From IMG/VR virus record IMGVR_UViG_3300045988_128817: DNA of 38,184 nt, one strand, 5' to 3'. This document shows positions 1 through 38,184 of the stretch, piece after piece (positions within the stretch are counted from its first letter, which is position 1; each line of letters starts with the position of its first letter). This DNA is from a virus. Made by a program: the position numbers and the translations under genes. The notes below the pieces were generated by a model. The model was given only the letters and a program-made list of their open reading frames with translations. It ran no database searches and was not told the DNA's origin.

Positions 1-55
1 AGCTGGAGGAATAATATGGCGGTTGATATAGGTCTATGGTAAAATAAGGACAAGG
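1..55. repeat. Terminal direct repeat, copy 1 of 2 (exact copy of 38130..38184); a circular-assembly overlap rather than a biological repeat
   Basis: The first 55 nt (agctggaggaataatatggcggttgatataggtctatggtaaaataaggacaagg) are identical to the last 55 nt. Positions 1-14 duplicate the 3' end and TAA stop of the holin ORF. Confidence 0.9.
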
Positions 56-102
56 ATTACCGTTTGGCGGTCGGTCACTCTCTGATAAAGGGGGTGACGC
101 TT

Positions 103-189
103 ATGGTTACATACTCAGAGCTGTTTACATTCAGCTCGCTGATCGTGAGTATTATTACCCTTTGCGTGTTGTTACTGCGCAAGAAATAG
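103..189 (+). CDS. Small hydrophobic peptide, Hol-Tox-like / type I toxin-like (28 aa)
   Basis: Too short for the ORF track. ATG 103 follows AAAGGGGGTG at RBS distance. The product MVTYSELFTFSSLIVSIITLCVLLLRKK is one hydrophobic helix plus a basic C-terminus, as in Firmicutes putative holin-like toxin peptides. It lies directly after the holin across the circular junction. Confidence 0.5.
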   Translation: MVTYSELFTFSSLIVSIITLCVLLLRKK

Positions 190-247
190 CAAAGACCGCC
201 TAATCTGAGGATTAGACGGTCGCTTTGGAAAAGTATTTCTCGGACTG

Positions 248-278
248 ACCGCCGTACCAAAGGCGGTAATCCTTTTTT
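248..278 (+). terminator. Weak stem-loop with a distal T-run
   Basis: accgcc(248-253)/ggcggt(262-267) forms a 6-bp GC stem; TTTTTT at 273-278 lies 5 nt away. Confidence 0.3.
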
Positions 279-327
279 ATCTATATTAAGATTACCACGC
301 AGAGAGAACTTAATCAAGGAGATTTCA

Positions 328-352
328 GAGGAAGCCGGAAGGCTTCTTTTTT
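328..352 (+). terminator. Rho-independent terminator closing the holin/Hol-Tox transcript
   Basis: gaagcc(331-336) ggaa ggcttc(341-346) is followed by TTTTTT 347-352. The stem is extendable by A-U/G-U pairs. Confidence 0.7.
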
Positions 353-375
353 ATAAAGTAGTCTGATGATATTGG

Positions 376-427
376 TTGATATCATAATTTTTGTGTGATA
401 TGATAAATTTACCTAAAAGGTAAATTT
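376..427 (+). promoter_or_regulatory. Promoter of the higBA-like cassette with a palindromic operator at the start site
   Basis: TTGATA(376-381), 17-nt spacer, TGaTATGAT extended -10 (-10 hexamer 399-404). A perfect 9-bp inverted repeat follows immediately: aaatttacc(405-413)/ggtaaattt(419-427). A second inverted repeat, atgatat-N6-atatcat, sits around 366-385. Confidence 0.6.
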
Positions 428-442
428 GAAAGAGGTGACGCA

Positions 443-739
443 TTGCGAATCACATATAAAAGCAAGAAGATCGAAAAGGTGTGTACAGTTGCCTCAGAAG
501 CCGAAAAGAAATACGGCCTTGAAATGGCTGCTAAGATCCACCAGCGTATAGATGAAATAAGTAGTGCCGATACTATAGAGGAAATGGTTCAATTTAAACT
601 TGGTCGATGCCATCCGTTGAAAGGAGAACGAAAAGGGCAATATGCTGTGGATTTGGTTCAACCTAATCGATTAGTATTCCAAAAAGAGGGCGATGAAATT
701 CAAATTGCAAAGATAATGGAAATCGTAGATTACCATTAG
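443..739 (+). CDS. higB: HigB-family toxin (plasmid maintenance system killer, RelE/ParE superfamily)
   Basis: TTG start after AAGAGGTG. The C-terminal pattern CHPLKGERKGQYAVDL..NRLVF......IVDYH matches the HigB signature (LHPLKGdrkG...wRi.F....DYH). Confidence 0.85.
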   Translation: MRITYKSKKIEKVCTVASEAEKKYGLEMAAKIHQRIDEISSADTIEEMVQFKLGRCHPLKGERKGQYAVDLVQPNRLVFQKEGDEIQIAKIMEIVDYH

Positions 740-771
740 TTTTATTGTTGAGTTAGGAGGAGGTAACGAAA

Positions 772-1824
772 ATGATAAAGAGTCGTACTTTTATTGCAAC
801 GCCTCCAGGAGCAACTATAAAGGAACAGCTTCAAGACAGGGGGCTCAGCCAGAAAGAATTTGCTCTGCGTATGGGTATGTCTGAAAAACATATCAGCAAT
901 CTTATAAACGGCGACGTCAGATTGACCCCTGAAGTTGCTTTTCGTTTGGAAATGGTTCTGGGTATCCCTGCAAAATTTTGGAATAACTTGGAATCTGTTT
1001 ATCGTGATAAAATAATAAAGGCTAATGCTGAAAATGAAATGGATGCAGATATAGAGTTGATGAAAAAATTTCCATATCGTGAAATGGAAAGAAATGAGTG
1101 GGTGCCTCATGCAACAAATTCTGTGGAAAGAGTCATAAATTTACGGCAGTATTTTGGAGTTGCACAGTTGGCGATGGTTCAAGATTCACGTATTACTCGA
1201 ATAGCTTGCCGCAGGTTGTCTGAAACGGAAAAAGCTGACTTTGCTTTAATTGCATGGGCTCAAAAAGCAAAATTAGAATGCAGATCAATTCAAACAGGTC
1301 CTATTGATTTAAAACATTTACATGATATCATTCCTGAAATAAGAGAAATGACCGTAAAAGACCCTTCTGAATTTTGCTCTCAATTAACGCAGATGTTGGC
1401 GGAGTGTGGAATCGCCCTTGTGTTTCTACCGCATATTGGAGGTTCTTTTTTACATGGAGCTACGTTTTATGAGGGACAAAAGATAGTGGTTGGTCTTACT
1501 GTTCGCGGACGGGATGCGGATAGATTTTGGTTTAGTCTTTTTCATGAATTGGCACATATTTTAAAGGGCCATATTAATCAACTTGAGGGGACTTCAGATG
1601 AGGACGAGGATGAGGCCAATCAATTCGCAAAAAATACATTGATAGATATCAGAAGCTTTGAATCTTTTGTTGAAAACGGAGACTATAGAAAGGATGCTGT
1701 AATTCAATTTGCTGATTCAATCGGAATTGACAGGGGTATTGTAGTTGGACGTCTTCAGAAGGAAGGCTATATCCCATTTAATTGGTTTAACGATTTAAAG
1801 AAAAAATATGTTATTACAAATTAG
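772..1824 (+). CDS. higA: HigA-type XRE HTH antitoxin fused to a C-terminal ImmA/IrrE (COG2856) zinc metallopeptidase domain
   Basis: The N-terminus (IKEQLQDRGLSQKEFALRMGMSEKHISNLINGDVRLTPEVAFRLEMVLGIPAKFWNNLE) is HigA-like. The C-terminal half carries an intact HEXXH (FHELAHILKGH). RBS is AGGAGGAGG. Confidence 0.8.
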   Translation: MIKSRTFIATPPGATIKEQLQDRGLSQKEFALRMGMSEKHISNLINGDVRLTPEVAFRLEMVLGIPAKFWNNLESVYRDKIIKANAENEMDADIELMKKFPYREMERNEWVPHATNSVERVINLRQYFGVAQLAMVQDSRITRIACRRLSETEKADFALIAWAQKAKLECRSIQTGPIDLKHLHDIIPEIREMTVKDPSEFCSQLTQMLAECGIALVFLPHIGGSFLHGATFYEGQKIVVGLTVRGRDADRFWFSLFHELAHILKGHINQLEGTSDEDEDEANQFAKNTLIDIRSFESFVENGDYRKDAVIQFADSIGIDRGIVVGRLQKEGYIPFNWFNDLKKKYVITN

Positions 1825-1847
1825 TAAAAAATGTTGACGCTTCTTGA

Positions 1848-1873
1848 GCACTCTGCTTTGCAGGGTGCTTTTT
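1848..1873 (+). terminator. Rho-independent terminator between the TA cassette and the endolysin
   Basis: gcactctgc(1848-1856) ttt gcagggtgc(1860-1868) gives 9 bp with one G-U pair, then TTTTT 1869-1873. The endolysin RBS (GGAGGAAG) begins only about 5 nt further on. Confidence 0.7.
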
Positions 1874-1886
1874 ATATGGAGGAAGA

Positions 1887-2588
1887 ATGTACATCAAACA
1901 GCAGATTATCCCAAAGAGCAGAAAAACGCAGCGGCCGGGTATCGCCATGACTCCGCAGTTTATTACGATCCACAGCACAGGAAATCCGTCCAGTACAGCG
2001 CAGAACGAAGCGGACTATGTTTGTAAGAATTCTGTCCGTCAGGCATCGTTTCATTTCGTCTGCGACGAGAAGCAGGTGATTCAGGTGATTCCAACAAACG
2101 AGATTGCCTGGCACGCCGGAGACGGCGGCAGCGGTACAGGAAATCGGAAAAGTATCGCAATCGAAATCTGCGAGAGCGGCAATCGTAAGGCAGCCGTAGA
2201 TAATGCGGTGCAGCTGACGAAACAGCTTATGGATGAATTTAAAATTCAGCCGGGAAATGTCTTTCAGCATCATCATTGGAGCGGTAAGAACTGTCCGCGG
2301 ATTCTGAGGGATAATAAATACATAAAGGATAGAATCGACTGGAAATATTTCACGGCGAAAATCAGAGAAGAGGAGGAAGAGATGACACAGGAACAGTTTA
2401 ACAAGATGATGGACATATATCTGGAAGATCGTGCAGCACAGCCTCCACGTGACTGGTCAGAAGAAGATCGAAAGTGGGCGGAGAAAAATGGTATCATCCA
2501 GGGAGATCCTGACGGCGAGAAAAGATACGGTTCTTTCATCACCAGAGAAGAAGCGACAGCGATGATGCGAAGATTAGCAGAATTATAA
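1887..2588 (+). CDS. Endolysin: N-acetylmuramoyl-L-alanine amidase (Amidase_2/PGRP fold) with a short C-terminal SLH-like segment
   Basis: FITIHSTGN, ASFHFVCDE, AWHAGDG, SIAIEICES and HHHWSGKNCP are amidase_2 hallmarks. An EEEEE linker is followed by GIIQGDPDGEKRYGSFITREEATAMMRRL. Confidence 0.9.
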   Translation: MYIKQQIIPKSRKTQRPGIAMTPQFITIHSTGNPSSTAQNEADYVCKNSVRQASFHFVCDEKQVIQVIPTNEIAWHAGDGGSGTGNRKSIAIEICESGNRKAAVDNAVQLTKQLMDEFKIQPGNVFQHHHWSGKNCPRILRDNKYIKDRIDWKYFTAKIREEEEEMTQEQFNKMMDIYLEDRAAQPPRDWSEEDRKWAEKNGIIQGDPDGEKRYGSFITREEATAMMRRLAEL

Positions 2589-2617
2589 AAAAGCCGGGGG
2601 CACTCCCCGGCTTTTTT
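2587..2617. terminator. Bidirectional rho-independent terminator between convergent operons
   Basis: AAAAAA gccgggg(2593-2599) gcact ccccggc(2605-2611) TTTTTT. The A-run and T-run flank a 7-bp GC stem. Confidence 0.85.
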
Positions 2618-2688
2618 CTTTGGAGGTAACGTAATCATCAACTCTGCGCAATACTTCCAGCCTTCCGAAGCGCTTGCCTGATAGATCC

Positions 2689-3117
2689 TTAAATTTTATT
2701 TCCATCGCTATACGCATCATATATAGCATCTATGAGTCTGGCGAGATCGGATACTGTGAGCCTCTCAAAACAGGAATCTGGCACGCGCGATAGATTAGCC
2801 GAAAATGTATCTCCAAAGGCGCCTATTTTAGATTCTTTTCTTACAGCTGAAATTTTAGCCATTCCAACAATTTCCGGCAAACTAAAAATCGAAAGGTCGG
2901 TATCGGATGAAAATACATCAAAGTTGATATTTTCTAAATCCTCTATAGGATGACCGATTGCAGCGGACATTTTTTTTGCGGTTGATACCGTCATGTTGTC
3001 AATCGCAGTTTCGCCAGCTTCGTATTTTTGCCAAAGTCGGATATTGATTCCGACCCTTTCGGCGCATTCTCGCTGGGTAAGCCCAGCAAGTTTCCGTATT
3101 TTTCTTAAATTGCTCAT
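2689..3117 (-). CDS. XRE-family HTH protein with an unknown C-terminal domain (142 aa from the internal ATG)
   Basis: MSNLRKIRKLAGLTQRECAERVGINIRLWQKYEAGE is a classic XRE HTH. The start is moved to 3117 because the longer ORF overlaps the upstream gene. Confidence 0.7.
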   Translation of the reverse strand: MSNLRKIRKLAGLTQRECAERVGINIRLWQKYEAGETAIDNMTVSTAKKMSAAIGHPIEDLENINFDVFSSDTDLSIFSLPEIVGMAKISAVRKESKIGAFGDTFSANLSRVPDSCFERLTVSDLARLIDAIYDAYSDGNKI

Positions 3118-3127
3118 CTTGTTCTTC

Positions 3128-3511
3128 TTATCTTCCAACATATTCCATTGTTTCCGCGTTGATGTCGCTGTACTTCGTGCAAACATATTCATTTGCCACG
3201 AGATCGACATATCCGCAATCATATGTTCCTTTATAATTGCCTGCGAGAGTATAGCAGACGATCTTTAAGTATTCTCTCTTCTGTCCGTTCTTTTCCCAAA
3301 TCTTTGTAGTTACTTCACGTTCAACGCCTGCGTTGATGTGATAATCGTTATACTTCATCTTATTCAGGTTTTCTACTAACTTAGCCGTTAAATTTTCCAT
3401 CTTTTCTTTCGCTTCCTTCCACGCTTTTTTTAAAGCGGAAGACATGTCCATTTTTATTGCTTTAACTAATTCCCAAGCTCTTGTCATGATGTTTGATAAG
3501 TTGTATTTCAT
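3128..3511 (-). CDS. Hypothetical protein, first gene of a two-gene minus-strand cassette
   Basis: 127-aa ORF with a GGAGGAG RBS, transcribed from the consensus-like promoter at 3555..3583. No family recognised. Confidence 0.6.
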   Translation of the reverse strand: MKYNLSNIMTRAWELVKAIKMDMSSALKKAWKEAKEKMENLTAKLVENLNKMKYNDYHINAGVEREVTTKIWEKNGQKREYLKIVCYTLAGNYKGTYDCGYVDLVANEYVCTKYSDINAETMEYVGR

Positions 3512-3554
3512 TTCTTTCTCCTCCGCTTTTTGTTTTGCTTTATCTTATATCTAT

Positions 3555-3583
3555 ATAATACGCCAATAATGGCATTATGTCAA
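3555..3583 (-). promoter_or_regulatory. Near-consensus sigma-70-type promoter with a palindrome in the spacer
   Basis: On the minus strand: TTGACA(3583-3578), 17-nt spacer, TATTAT(3560-3555). A 13-bp palindrome ataatg-g-cattat occupies 3566-3578. Confidence 0.6.
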
Positions 3584-3694
3584 GTAGATATAAAAAATAA
3601 ATGCCAATATTGACGTATTTTTTTAGCGCACAGAAAAAGGCAAAGTTGTAGGTTCTGCCAAGGATTAAAAAAACTATATGTGGAATATTTATTA

Positions 3695-5106: not shown

Positions 5107-5496
5107 CTATAATCCTAATTGGGCCTTTAATGCTTCCTGCAAAGTGGCCGAAAAATTGATTCCAGCTTTTTCTGCTTCGTCATTCAGCCAAGATGGGATA
5201 GTGCAGTTCTTTCTGACGGAACGATTTTCGTTGCGTTTACGGTAATTATCAAAATCGACGTCTACCAATGTCTTAAATTGATTTCCCTCTGTTAAGACAG
5301 ATGAAATCGAAGATGGTTCCGGTACTGCCTTTTTTTCATCTTCCCAGTAACATCCGGTCATAGCGATAGCATCTCGAGCCATATCCATAGCCTCCGCCTC
5401 ATCTTCGCCTTGAGTATTGATGTCAAAATCGGGTATATAGACAACAAAACCGCCTTCCTCTGCTGGGGTTAAAACGATAGGATAAACTTTTTTCAT
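5107..5496 (-). CDS. hicB: HicB-family antitoxin with a C-terminal RHH-like DNA-binding tail
   Basis: MKKVYPIVLTPAEEGGFVVYIPDFDINTQGEDEAEAMDMARDAI is the HicB N-domain pattern. RBS is AAAGGAGGAA. Confidence 0.8.
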   Translation of the reverse strand: MKKVYPIVLTPAEEGGFVVYIPDFDINTQGEDEAEAMDMARDAIAMTGCYWEDEKKAVPEPSSISSVLTEGNQFKTLVDVDFDNYRKRNENRSVRKNCTIPSWLNDEAEKAGINFSATLQEALKAQLGL

Positions 5497-5532
5497 GAGA
5501 GATTCCTCCTTTTATCGAAACAGAGAACGGGT

Positions 5533-5706
5533 TTATTTCAGCCCGTTTCTCTTAATAATTGCTTTGGCAAGCACTTCCTTTATTTCAGGATGACGTGGAA
5601 TAGGTTCTGTATTTTTTCCGTTGGTGTAAATATCGTGATTTGCACCATTTCTGACCAGATACCAACCATTTTTTTCGAGCATCCTAATCAACTCCCTTCG
5701 TTTCAA
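5533..5706 (-). CDS. hicA: HicA-family mRNA interferase toxin (57 aa, absent from the ORF track)
   Basis: TTG start 9 nt after AAGGAGG. Hand translation gives (M)KRRELIRMLEKNGWYLVRNGANHDIYTNGKNTEPIPRHPEIKEVLAKAIIKRNGLK, matching the HicA pattern (G.H..y......t.iPrH.eik.gtl..Il). Confidence 0.8.
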   Translation of the reverse strand: MKRRELIRMLEKNGWYLVRNGANHDIYTNGKNTEPIPRHPEIKEVLAKAIIKRNGLK

Positions 5707-6598: not shown

Positions 6599-7498
6599 TT
6601 ATTCGATACAATCCCAGAAATCGTTTTCATGGACAATTTGAATTTTTGAGCCGGACTTTCTTAAGTTGACAGCCTTTTCGACTTTGCGGCCATAACATGA
6701 AAATGCCCAGCACGGATTCCCCTCATCGCCCACTATAAGAAAGTCAGTATTTTTTACTACTGAATCTTTGAAAGTACCTCCTGCATCGGTTACTGCTTCA
6801 GCAATTTCTGTTCTGGAAGCTCTGGAAGATTTGCCAGTGAAACTGAAAATTTTATCTTTAAAAGTAATATTAGGCTGCATGCTACAGATTCCAGAGATTT
6901 GGTACTGTTCCTTCAACGCATCGATTTCTCTTTGGGAAATGTTGTAAGATTCTGCACAGTCAATAAAATCGCTCATAAAAGCAATTAGCATTCCTCTTTC
7001 ATCTTCTGTAATCACTCCATCCTGAAGGACTGTCGTGATTAAACTTCGAATCTCGTCATACGGATATGTTCCAATCAAGACATCTTCGTTTGAATCTAAC
7101 CAGTCATTAAGTCTTTTAATTTCTGTGTCACTTAATTTTTTATCAGCTAAGATTCCATGAAAAATTCCATGTAGTAGCTGTAGAGACAGAGTGATAAATC
7201 CATAATATTTACCGTCATTAAATTGATCGCAGACCCACAGAATATTTTCAATCTCTTCTTGTTCCAGAACATTATCAGAAAGAACTTCGATAATGACGGG
7301 AATCAACTCCTTGAATGGAGACTGGTGTTTATATGTCTTGTGTATATGCAACCAATTTCTTAACTCTTCAATTTCGGCCCGATTGACTTTTTCGTCAATG
7401 GTTATACCTTGCAAAAGCCCGCGTAGAGTAAGGAGCGCTTTTTCGGTTTCAGCCTTTCCCATATATTTTCTATAGTCCATAGTTTCATATGTTGACAT
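6599..7498 (-). CDS. Protein with three TerB-like helical repeats and a C-terminal BRCT domain (299 aa)
   Basis: The C-terminus FSFTGKSSRASRTEIAEAVTDAGGTFKDSVVKNTDFLIVGDEG...KVEKAVNL...IQIVHENDFW follows the LigA-type BRCT pattern. The N-terminus repeats the motif h.G...D..h...Eh..L..WL three times. Start is set at ATG 7498 (AAGGAAGG upstream). Confidence 0.6.
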   Translation of the reverse strand: MSTYETMDYRKYMGKAETEKALLTLRGLLQGITIDEKVNRAEIEELRNWLHIHKTYKHQSPFKELIPVIIEVLSDNVLEQEEIENILWVCDQFNDGKYYGFITLSLQLLHGIFHGILADKKLSDTEIKRLNDWLDSNEDVLIGTYPYDEIRSLITTVLQDGVITEDERGMLIAFMSDFIDCAESYNISQREIDALKEQYQISGICSMQPNITFKDKIFSFTGKSSRASRTEIAEAVTDAGGTFKDSVVKNTDFLIVGDEGNPCWAFSCYGRKVEKAVNLRKSGSKIQIVHENDFWDCIE

Positions 7499-7543
7499 AA
7501 GTAAGTTACCTTCCTTTCTCGGGATCGGGATATAACTCAAAAA

Positions 7544-7759
7544 TCAAAGTTCATTCTGGCACCTTGATTCAATTGACTGAACATCATCTTTTTCAAAGTC
7601 ATTTTTTTTAATATGACTTAATGCATGTTGATAGCTTTTCAAATGTGTTTCATAATTACACTTTGCATTAAGGAAGATACTGTAACTATCATCTTCGTTT
7701 CTGCAAACGGTTTCCTTTACTCCGATTGGAAGATCAATCAGATGGACGTTCAATGTCAT
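7544..7759 (-). CDS. Short ImmA/IrrE-like protein with a degenerate metal motif (HALSH instead of HEXXH)
   Basis: LIDLPIGVKE...SIFLNAKCNYETHLKSYQHALSHIKKNDF matches short phage ImmA-like proteins except for Glu to Ala in the motif. Its ATG overlaps the repressor stop (TAATG). Confidence 0.5.
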   Translation of the reverse strand: MTLNVHLIDLPIGVKETVCRNEDDSYSIFLNAKCNYETHLKSYQHALSHIKKNDFEKDDVQSIESRCQNEL

Positions 7760-8136
7760 TAATCATCAACCCCTTTTTCCTTTCTCTTCAGAGCCATTAA
7801 CATTTCGTGTGTAGTTTTTAGATCTTCCGGAGAAGAATCACGCGCTGCACTAAATAATAGTCGAAGTTCTTTATTGTCGAAGATTTCTTGTGCGATCTGA
7901 GCGGTTTCTTCGTTTAAATAGTATAGATTTGTATTTTCTTTTTCTTCATCATCTCCATAAAAATAAGATAATGGTACATCGAAATAATTACAGATAATTT
8001 CAATTTTATCTTTTTTAGGTGTGCTTTTTCCATTTTTCCAATCTGATAATGTAGCTGTCGATATTCCAGTGTCTTTATGAACTCTGTAAGGAGTTATTCC
8101 ATTAGCTTTTAGCAACTTTTCGAATTTTTGATACAT
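7759..8136 (-). CDS. CI-like lysogeny repressor, XRE HTH (125 aa)
   Basis: MYQKFEKLLKANGITPYRVHKDTGISTATLSDWKNGKSTPKKDKIEIICNYF plus a C-terminal extension. It is divergent from a Cro-like gene. AAGAGG RBS precedes ATG 8136. Confidence 0.85.
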   Translation of the reverse strand: MYQKFEKLLKANGITPYRVHKDTGISTATLSDWKNGKSTPKKDKIEIICNYFDVPLSYFYGDDEEKENTNLYYLNEETAQIAQEIFDNKELRLLFSAARDSSPEDLKTTHEMLMALKRKEKGVDD

Positions 8137-8171
8137 AATAAACCTCTTTTTCATCACGGAAAAATTTCTTG

Positions 8172-37951: not shown

Positions 37952-38143
37952 ATGACAAAAAAATGGTGGAAAGCTGCAGGAATAAGAGCAGTAAAGACGA
38001 TCGCTCAAACGGCAATCGCCACAATCGGTGCATCGGTCCTGCTGTCCGAGGTCAATTGGTTAGCAGTGGCATCTGCTTCGGCGTTGGCCGGGATCCTGTC
38101 TCTGCTGACCAGTGTCGCAGGGCTTCCAGAGCTGGAGGAATAA
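37952..38143 (+). CDS. Holin (63 aa)
   Basis: AAGAGGTG precedes ATG 37952. [61 protein letters not shown] has two TM segments and the AGLPE tail seen in Gram-positive phage holins. The longer track ORF would begin inside the terminator. Confidence 0.7.
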
Positions 38144-38184
38144 TATGGCGGTTGATATAGGTCTATGGTAAAATAAGGACAAGG
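38130..38184. repeat. Terminal direct repeat, copy 2 of 2
   Basis: Exact 55/55 match to positions 1..55. Confidence 0.9.

Follow-up and report, generated by a model that had tools for sequence, protein, structure and literature searches.

The gene pair and its signals

The IMG/VR virus record IMGVR_UViG_3300045988_128817, a stretch of 38,184 nucleotides analysed at its full length and called here the window, carries near its left end a pair of genes, one for a HigB-type toxin and the other for a fusion of a HigA-type helix-turn-helix (HTH) antitoxin domain with a zinc peptidase of the M78 (ImmA/IrrE) family. Promoter, operator, higB, higA-M78 and terminator together form an inserted moron of about 1.53 kb (353..~1885, + strand), delimited by relatives with an empty site and by a shift in GC content. 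An earlier interpretation made from the letters alone (hereafter the sequence-only reading) had described a self-contained cassette, and this is borne out both by the signals that the cassette owns and by the empty-site relatives, which reveal a discrete insertion.

The first gene, higB (443..739, +), has a TTG start and encodes a protein of 98 amino acids, predicted from its PHROG match, its AlphaFold2 (AF2) fold and its conserved residues to be a ribosome-dependent mRNase toxin of the RelE fold. It falls in PHROG 3066 (E 1.8e-14), described as ‘toxin of TA system’ (TA, toxin-antitoxin). Compared with Pfam, this copy reaches 17.2 bits for HigB (PF05015) and 19.8 for YoeB, both under the cut-off of 27; precomputed PF05015 matches exist for some of the homologues. 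The best sequence relative of solved structure is the HigB protein of Proteus vulgaris (4mct_B, E 2.5e-3), with which a HPLKG(D/E)R motif is shared, and the same protein provides the best Foldseek superposition (TM 0.74-0.78) of the AF2 model (pLDDT 89.7). Residues H54, R73, D90, Y91 and H92 of P. vulgaris HigB are needed for mRNA cleavage (PMC5027501). Their equivalents in the window protein are H57, R76, D96, Y97 and H98, the last three forming a C-terminal DYH; among 101 distinct homologues, Y97 is conserved to 99% and the other four residues are invariant. The protein thus has the RelE/HigB fold together with the catalytic residues of HigB, and the toxin gene announced by the sequence-only reading is indeed present at 443-739, its identity being carried by PHROG 3066, the fold and these residues rather than by PF05015.

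The second gene (772..1824, +) begins 32 nt after higB, the toxin gene coming first (the reverse order), and encodes the 350-amino-acid fusion, recognised by HTH and M78 profiles and, over residues 12-344, by the PADLOC profile PD-Lambda-2_B (E 4.9e-37). A HigA HTH occupies residues ∼10-80, a long helix residues 67-97, a conserved linker or middle region, containing an invariant C146-R147 pair, residues 98-150, and the M78 peptidase residues ∼150-335. The N-terminal domain matches HTH_3 with an E-value of 5e-12. With the HigA model TIGR02607 the score is 47.0 bits, marginally under the cut-off of 47.7, so that this particular profile does not attest HigA identity, but two other lines do: a profile built from the fusion family retrieves the HigA structures of E. 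coli and P. vulgaris (E 3e-10 to 2e-8), and Foldseek superposes the N-terminus of the fusion on HigA structures with TM 0.74-0.82. A HigA-type XRE HTH antitoxin is therefore encoded downstream of the toxin, as in HigBA systems.

The peptidase part passes the cut-off of Peptidase_M78 (PF06114) with 24.5 bits against 22. Its active-site codons (1543..1608, +) comprise those of the HELAH motif, H258-E-L-A-H262 (1543-1557), and of E279 (1606-1608); H258, E259, H262 and E279 are invariant in an alignment of 27 homologues. From its position and invariance, and by analogy with H97/E98/H101/E128 of CapP, we infer that E279 is the third zinc ligand. Profile match, HEXXH motif and downstream Glu being all present, the 350 residues do hold, as had been proposed, a HigA HTH and an intact ImmA/IrrE-type peptidase. 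The further statement that this is the only intact ImmA domain of the genome holds at the level of the motif: no other HEXXH occurs in the open frames of at least 60 amino acids in the six frames of the whole window. The AF2 model of the fusion has a pLDDT of 89.7 and a pTM of 0.78, and constraint is strong over the whole 350 residues, with a mean column identity of 74% in the same alignment. A sequence-profile search for solved structures of residues 100-350 found none; their best fold match is CapP (7t5t), a weak one (E 2.8e-3, TM 0.29-0.34), and a search of BFVD with the fusion returned HigA/VapI plus weak IrrE matches and nothing else. After the peptidase, no residues are left for a GAF domain.

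The start codons are conserved in the family, TTG for HigB in 110 of 121 cassettes and ATG for the fusion in 112 of 121. One locus (L141) was considered as a natural case of a higB pseudogene beside an intact fusion; no higB is called there, yet the gene is intact.

Upstream of the pair lies a sigma-70-type promoter with an extended -10 element (376..404, +): TTGATA (376-381), 17 nt and TGaTATGAT (396-404), i.e. 10/12 consensus positions plus the TG, in agreement with the sequence-only reading. Promoter-like matches as a class are not enriched in the region 1..2700, where 7 were found and 6.4 are expected from shuffles. Over the expected transcription start there is a proximal putative operator, a perfect inverted repeat of 10 nt with a 3-nt spacer, AAATTTACCT-N3-AGGTAAATTT (405..427, +); the palindrome had been noticed before, but as one of 9 bp. 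The -35 TTGAC, TGnTATAAT and the palindrome can be aligned between five contexts that are unrelated to one another, and promoter and palindrome are kept in the chromosomes of Syntrophomonas and Dorea as well as in unrelated phages. Of 123 unique upstream regions of homologues, 103 contain the core of the palindrome, TTACC-N3-5-GGTWA, as compared to 0.0014 per shuffled sequence; this core clusters at -40..-30 and -100..-90 relative to the start of higB. In the layout of the family, a first palindrome precedes the -35 and a second comes immediately after the -10. The distal one (-100..-90) exists in about half of the homologous cassettes and is missing in the window, which retains the proximal copy alone; its expected position (340-365) coincides with the left insertion boundary (352/353). 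Because this distal copy is missing, repression may be weaker in the lineage of the window.

Both terminators that had been said to bracket the cassette are stable hairpins followed by T-runs, but only the right one is its own. This intrinsic terminator (1846..1875, +) has an 11-bp stem, a 3-nt loop and a T-run (hairpin 1846-1870, dG -16.9, z -4.76), and a similar hairpin with T-run stands 3′ of 64 of 119 homologous cassettes. The left one (327..352, +), with a stem GAAGCC/GGCTTC extended by G-U pairs and a T-run (dG -13.5, z -3.96), belongs to the phage backbone and not to the insert, because it is also present in relatives without the cassette.

Insertion, spread and phage surroundings of the cassette

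Empty sites were obtained by look-up of contigs encoding an identical 63-amino-acid holin; these include prophages in which the endolysin comes directly next (L144, L145, L147 and L151-L153). In four of them (L144, L145, L152 and L153), the DNA aligns unbroken from the holin to position 352 of the window, and all six realign from 1878-1882, with 15-22 nt in between. Since the alignments stop at 352 and resume at 1878-1882, the insert extends from 353 to about 1885. The right junction is located at 1878-1890, where the ribosome-binding site (RBS) and the second codon of the endolysin gene are replaced (MYIKQQ versus MQIKQQ; over 1876-1892, GGAGGAAGAATGTAC versus CAGGAGGTGAAAAATGCAG in the empty-site relatives), from which it follows that the beginning of the lysin gene was exchanged when the cassette was inserted or recombined in. 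The GC content is 0.36-0.41 within the insert, as against 0.44-0.50 in the endolysin gene. Close relatives of the phage were sought among GenBank phages, where a blastn search of 1-3600 matched the cassette alone, at 68% identity, in two gut-metagenome phages and tblastn matched no more than three phage records. The endolysin did not lead to empty sites: all of the 20 contigs inspected that have the exact endolysin also have the cassette, and the endolysin relatives in IMG/VR are at most 45% identical.

The slot between holin and endolysin is a cargo hot spot. In L146, L148, L149 and L234 it is filled by a Bro-N gene (251 amino acids) and an M15 lysin gene, which replace the cassette and the Amidase_2 lysin, and L147 has an Abi_2 gene 3′ of the lysin (L147:4895-5764). 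The position of the cassette amid lysis genes reflects this hot spot and implies no link to lysis.

The cassette itself is far from being confined to this slot. An exhaustive search with the fusion (E <= 1e-30) yielded 1,103 representatives of 50%-identity clusters, a word-indexed search (E <= 1e-10) 2,971 homologues, mostly of 350 amino acids and 64-70% identical, and a pattern scan found relatives in 407 species-representative genomes; among the genomes listed, most are from Lachnospiraceae, Oscillospiraceae, Syntrophomonadaceae and Erysipelotrichaceae. The survey of HigA-ImmA fusions beside HigB that the sequence-only reading had suggested gave a clear answer, in that all 141 of the 141 loci with a full-length fusion have a HigB homologue directly upstream, at 20-35 nt, usually 24-34. 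Copies that are 65-70% identical occupy non-prophage chromosomal sites, and the cassette moves among unrelated sites: the pair of Syntrophomonas wolfei adjoins cas1/cas2 and IS elements, and that of Dorea sits between V-ATPase and ABC-transporter genes. The copies in IMG/VR are mostly found at the junction of large terminase and portal genes or just upstream of the terminase genes, and a few near lysis or integrase genes. The large terminase beside one of these phage copies (L011:64-2331, 755 amino acids) contains LAGLIDADG/Hom_end homing-endonuclease domains, probably an intein. More distant full-length homologues (26-35% identity) are carried by 40 plasmids from many phyla, under the PGAP names ‘HigA family addiction module antitoxin’ or ‘ImmA/IrrE family metallo-endopeptidase’. 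Large viral contigs also contain stand-alone genes for the HigA N-domain, one of 92 amino acids (L065:4001-4279) that is 74% identical to residues 1-91 of the fusion and one of 145 amino acids (L063:4001-4438) that is 68% identical to residues 1-145. Neither of these orphan genes is preceded by higB or encodes a peptidase part; they may be remnants left by decay, or they may serve as decoys of the antitoxin against HigB/HigA-M78 systems.

The arrangement had been called unusual, which cannot be maintained in view of the 141 linked loci, the 1,103 cluster representatives and the 407 species genomes, of a prediction published in 2009 and of the defence shown for the related system PD-lambda-2: the architecture is widespread and already known, and the window copy is an ordinary member of the family. 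We consider it probable, though by no means assured, that the segment 353-~1885 is a type II HigB/HigA-M78 moron which was acquired horizontally, is autonomous in its transcription and acts in abortive-infection defence or in addiction.

A stricter version would make it a purely selfish addiction module, in which post-segregational killing stabilises the prophage or the module itself, the peptidase only conferring instability on the antitoxin, with no role in defence. The classical higBA is a plasmid-maintenance system, and both the plasmid homologues with their addiction-module names and the hopping of the cassette among unrelated sites at 65-70% protein identity are what such a module would lead one to expect. 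However, the closest homologue that has been tested, PD-lambda-2 (from E. coli ECOR42; Vassallo et al. 2022), in which a HigB-like protein (A) and a HigA-peptidase (B) are accompanied by the product of a third gene (C), is an abortive-infection defence system against lambda-vir (PMC9519451). Moreover, systems with HTH-ImmA antitoxins are enriched in defence contexts, and the S. wolfei copy neighbours CRISPR-Cas genes. We therefore regard a purely selfish role as rather unlikely, bearing in mind that addiction and defence are not mutually exclusive.

A conserved third gene was sought 3′ of the pair in the Bacillota loci examined and none was found, the neighbours being portal, terminase, ABC-transporter or IS genes, among others. 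Three-gene versions do exist elsewhere. On plasmid pRadio3 of Deinococcus radiophilus (L246, 1161-3959), a gene for a Fic protein overlaps the stop codon of the fusion, and in Achromobacter phage CF418P1 (L244, 2166-4093) the third gene is an open reading frame (ORF) of 161 amino acids without a PADLOC match. One may ask whether the pair acts as a transcriptional sensor of the CapH/CapP kind that controls a neighbouring effector, through read-through into the endolysin in the window and through a variable third gene elsewhere. Such a role would agree with the different third genes just mentioned, with the requirement for C in PD-lambda-2 and with PADLOC matches to capP and capH, which are weak. 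But the Bacillota family has no conserved third gene after the pair, between the cassette and the endolysin gene there is a strong terminator, and the endolysin is equally present in the empty-site relatives. Of all the explanations weighed here we find this one the least credible.

The element that hosts the cassette is a temperate phage of gut Bacillota. Positions 1-55 are repeated identically at 38130-38184, and the window is therefore an assembly closed into a circle of about 38,129 bp. Across the circular junction, the true upstream neighbour of the cassette is an r1t-type phage holin of 63 amino acids (37952..38143, +; Pfam Phage_r1t_holin, E 3.3e-16); the location between holin and endolysin given by the sequence-only reading is thus right, but the holin is this gene. 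Downstream, and outside the module, comes the Amidase_2 endolysin (1887..2588, +; Pfam E 5.6e-24, PHROG amidase E 2e-48). The order of genes is accordingly r1t holin, a BsrG/Hol-Tox-like element (50-269), the backbone terminator, the cassette, the endolysin and then, on the other strand, a lysogeny module consisting of a serine integrase, HicAB, a BRCT-domain protein, a 71-amino-acid ORF and an XRE-type CI-like repressor.

Two further toxin-antitoxin candidates are found in this neighbourhood. A HicA toxin (57 amino acids) and a HicB antitoxin (129 amino acids), encoded at 5107-5706 (-) next to the serine integrase, form a second type II module of the phage. Between holin and cassette there is a candidate type I system of the BsrG/SR4 kind (50-269, +; ORF 103-189; minus strand 275-190). 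The Rfam BsrG match at 50-269 spans the full-length model with 27.3 bits (E 7e-4), the gathering score of 55 not being reached, and the hydrophobic ORF of 28 amino acids (103-189) has a weak Pfam Hol_Tox match. The opposite strand could yield an antisense RNA (275-190), since its folding is strong (z -5.7) and a hairpin resembling a terminator (221->194) is present. The segment 56-270 is itself swapped out in some relatives. Inside the cassette, the Rfam scan of 1-3000 gave chance-level matches at most.

The sequence-only reading had also assigned a role to the lysogeny module: it took the gene next to the CI repressor for an ImmA-like one that has lost its catalytic Glu, and it suggested as one possibility that the fusion cleaves itself or the CI-like repressor, thereby coupling toxin release, prophage induction and lysis. 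On such a model, cleavage by the M78 peptidase would respond to DNA damage, and the location in the lysis cassette would be functional. As to the first point, the 71-amino-acid ORF (7544-7759) has no Pfam match, belongs to PHROG 20886, of unknown function, and in BLASTP gives with the fusion only a non-significant alignment (E 0.21) that places HALSH on HELAH; its reading as a degenerate ImmA is thus rejected as unsupported. Together with a BRCT-domain protein of 313 amino acids (PHROG 3989) it forms a block (6599-7759, -) directly downstream of the CI-like repressor, and this block recurs in related phages. As to the second point, it may be said in its favour that the fusion is the only HEXXH peptidase of the genome and that the CI-like repressor (7759-8157, 132 amino acids), of XRE type, has neither an S24 autoprotease domain nor a recognisable ImmA partner; also, a Bro-N protein takes the same slot in the relative L234, and the Bro-N domain is common in antirepressors. 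Against it, a cassette that is 99-100% identical is found across phage variants with differing immunity regions, including two with LexA-like S24 repressors (L132 and L138); two other cassette-bearing variants (L140 and L141) have different tail modules. Conversely, L234 has the same CI, an identical 71-amino-acid ORF, the BRCT protein, HicAB and the integrase, but no cassette. Homologous cassettes also exist in non-prophage chromosomal loci and, in other phages, mostly at terminase/portal junctions, and the cassette, flanked as it is by terminators, is insulated from the lysis transcript. Given the variable immunity regions, L234, the copies outside phages and the lack of a peptidase signal in the 71-amino-acid ORF, a dedicated link of the cassette to the repressor of this phage or to the timing of lysis is unlikely, and the coupling as it was originally formulated appears to us highly improbable.

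Proposed mode of action

For the moron that we favour, DNA binding, neutralisation, the trigger, the substrate of cleavage and the defence phenotype are features that we infer, and they could fit together as follows. In a lysogen, the extended -10 promoter of the cassette would produce a bicistronic higB-higA mRNA, from which HigB would be translated weakly, owing to its TTG start, and the fusion strongly, from AGGAGG and an ATG. The HigA HTH would bind the palindrome over the transcription start and repress the operon, while the HigA domain would sequester HigB in the manner of the HigBA complex of P. vulgaris. The attached M78 zinc peptidase would be a built-in switch which, on a trigger, cuts the HigA or linker part in cis or in trans; the trigger would most likely be a cue from an infecting phage, or single-stranded DNA (ssDNA) or DNA damage, as for ImmA, IrrE and CapP. 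Freed HigB would then cut ribosome-bound mRNA and arrest translation, which would abort the infection by the superinfecting phage and have addiction to the prophage as a side effect. A role in defence is suggested by homology, namely the full-length PD-Lambda-2_B match, the precedent of the RosmerTA systems and the location of the S. wolfei copy beside cas1/cas2.

Several points weigh against this scheme, the main uncertainty being its polarity. In PD-lambda-2, the Xre-peptidase B was toxic when alone, the HigB-like A counteracted its toxicity and defence depended on C (PMC9519451). That system is the sole relative to have been tested, and it lies outside the Bacillota family. The locus of the window has no third gene, and the PADLOC model PD-Lambda-2_A misses its HigB. 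In addition, the fusion is devoid of the GAF domain that IrrE and CapP use to sense ssDNA, and for this reason its trigger may be a different one. Finally, sequence cannot separate a pure addiction or selfish role from defence.

One could accordingly suppose that the polarity is reversed in the window as well, the fusion being the toxic component, for instance as a deregulated peptidase or repressor, and the HigB-like protein its inhibitor, or that the two proteins restrain each other. The fusion is after all a full-length homologue of PD-lambda-2B, and the strong constraint over all its 350 residues, with 74% mean column identity, is compatible with such a function. But the residues for mRNA cleavage, which a protein serving only as an inhibitor could do without, are invariant or nearly so in 101 HigB sequences; the weak TTG of HigB and the strong ATG of the fusion fit the dosage expected of a toxin and its antitoxin; and since PD-Lambda-2_A does not detect the window HigB, the A components may not be equivalent. 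Reversed polarity thus seems improbable to us, and HigB, rather than the fusion, is favoured as the toxin because of its invariant catalytic residues and of the conserved asymmetry of start codons.

A more specific version of the scheme with HigB as the toxin is that the M78 domain constitutes the activation step. It would sense infection through a phage protein or nucleic acid, cut its own HigA or linker part and so free HigB without Lon or Clp, and HigB, as long as it is bound, would keep the peptidase off; this last feature would explain why the fusion of PD-lambda-2 is toxic when alone. A candidate site for self-cleavage is the invariant I-A-C146-R147-R-L strand, which the AF2 model places just before the peptidase domain. 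We put this forward as a tentative suggestion, more doubtful than the general scheme. If it were true, the orphan HigA N-domain genes of L065 and L063 would be anti-defence decoys.

The HigB + HigA-M78 family is very common, and its sole tested relative, PD-lambda-2, behaved unexpectedly. It could show how a type II toxin-antitoxin system is switched on by a built-in protease instead of by the host Lon or Clp, and the window copy, whose boundaries are exact and whose empty-site relatives are known, is a well-defined natural case of a moron for defence or addiction.

Comparison with known systems

The most extensive similarity is with PD-lambda-2. In both cases, a gene for a HigB-like protein precedes one in which a HigA/Xre HTH is joined to an ImmA/IrrE peptidase, and both systems are located on mobile elements. 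The comparison rests on PADLOC profiles and not on the sequences of the A, B and C proteins. With these profiles, component B is clearly recognised (PDLC03982, E 4.9e-37, 126 bits, residues 12-344 of the fusion against 60-388 of 402 in the profile), but component A is not, neither the window HigB nor its homologue in the Achromobacter phage giving a PD-Lambda-2_A match at E <= 0.1. There is no component C, the terminator and the endolysin gene coming directly 3′ of the pair. The two systems also differ by their hosts, E. coli for PD-lambda-2 and Bacillota for the family of the window, and by the toxic partner, which is B and not A in E. coli, whereas the catalytic residues of the window HigB are strictly conserved.

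The HigBA system of the P. vulgaris plasmid Rts1 shares with the cassette the toxin-first order, the HigB fold with equivalent catalytic residues, the HTH fold of HigA and the presence of palindromes, putative operators in the case of the cassette family, that flank or overlap the promoter. Compared to it, the window antitoxin has ∼270 extra residues, corresponding to the middle region and the intact M78 domain, and the window has the proximal palindrome alone.

RosmerTA defence systems are defined by their HTH-ImmA antitoxins (RmrA), which make up a defence-associated hub, and some are encoded by phages, e.g. Gordonia phage Kita (PMC10440598). Their antitoxin, like the fusion, joins an N-terminal HTH to an ImmA-type zinc peptidase. 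RmrA profiles nevertheless match only parts of the fusion, in its peptidase region, with E 1.3e-9 at best, far weaker than PD-Lambda-2_B. The RmrT toxins are diverse, that of Kita being a membrane-depolarising protein (PMC10440598) and not a HigB mRNase, and in PADLOC no RmrT profile matches the window HigB.

In the ImmA/ImmR, IrrE/DdrO and CapP/CapH pairs, an M78 peptidase cleaves an XRE repressor in response to ssDNA or DNA damage (PMC13228613). The functional coupling of an M78 HEXXH peptidase to an XRE HTH protein is common to these pairs and to the cassette, but in the window the two are parts of one polypeptide, tied to a toxin. CapP/CapH consists of a separate peptidase bearing a GAF domain and a cysteine-switch loop, and of a separate HTH substrate, which regulates an immune operon next to it; the fusion is a single polypeptide without GAF, and its PADLOC matches to capP (E 1.1e-4) and capH (0.021) are both weak.

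Finally, the architecture as such was foreseen by Makarova, Wolf and Koonin in 2009, who noted that Xre-COG2856 fusions share operons with toxins of the RelE or PIN type and are plentiful in phage and prophage genomes, and who put forward for them a protease-controlled ‘three-component TAS’ (PMC2701414). The window has this same architecture: its Xre HTH is fused to a COG2856 zincin, and a RelE-family toxin is encoded in the same operon. To what was then a prediction without a mechanism, the window copy adds insertion boundaries, a conserved putative operator and a subfamily in which a fusion of ∼350 amino acids is associated with a HigB of 98 amino acids.

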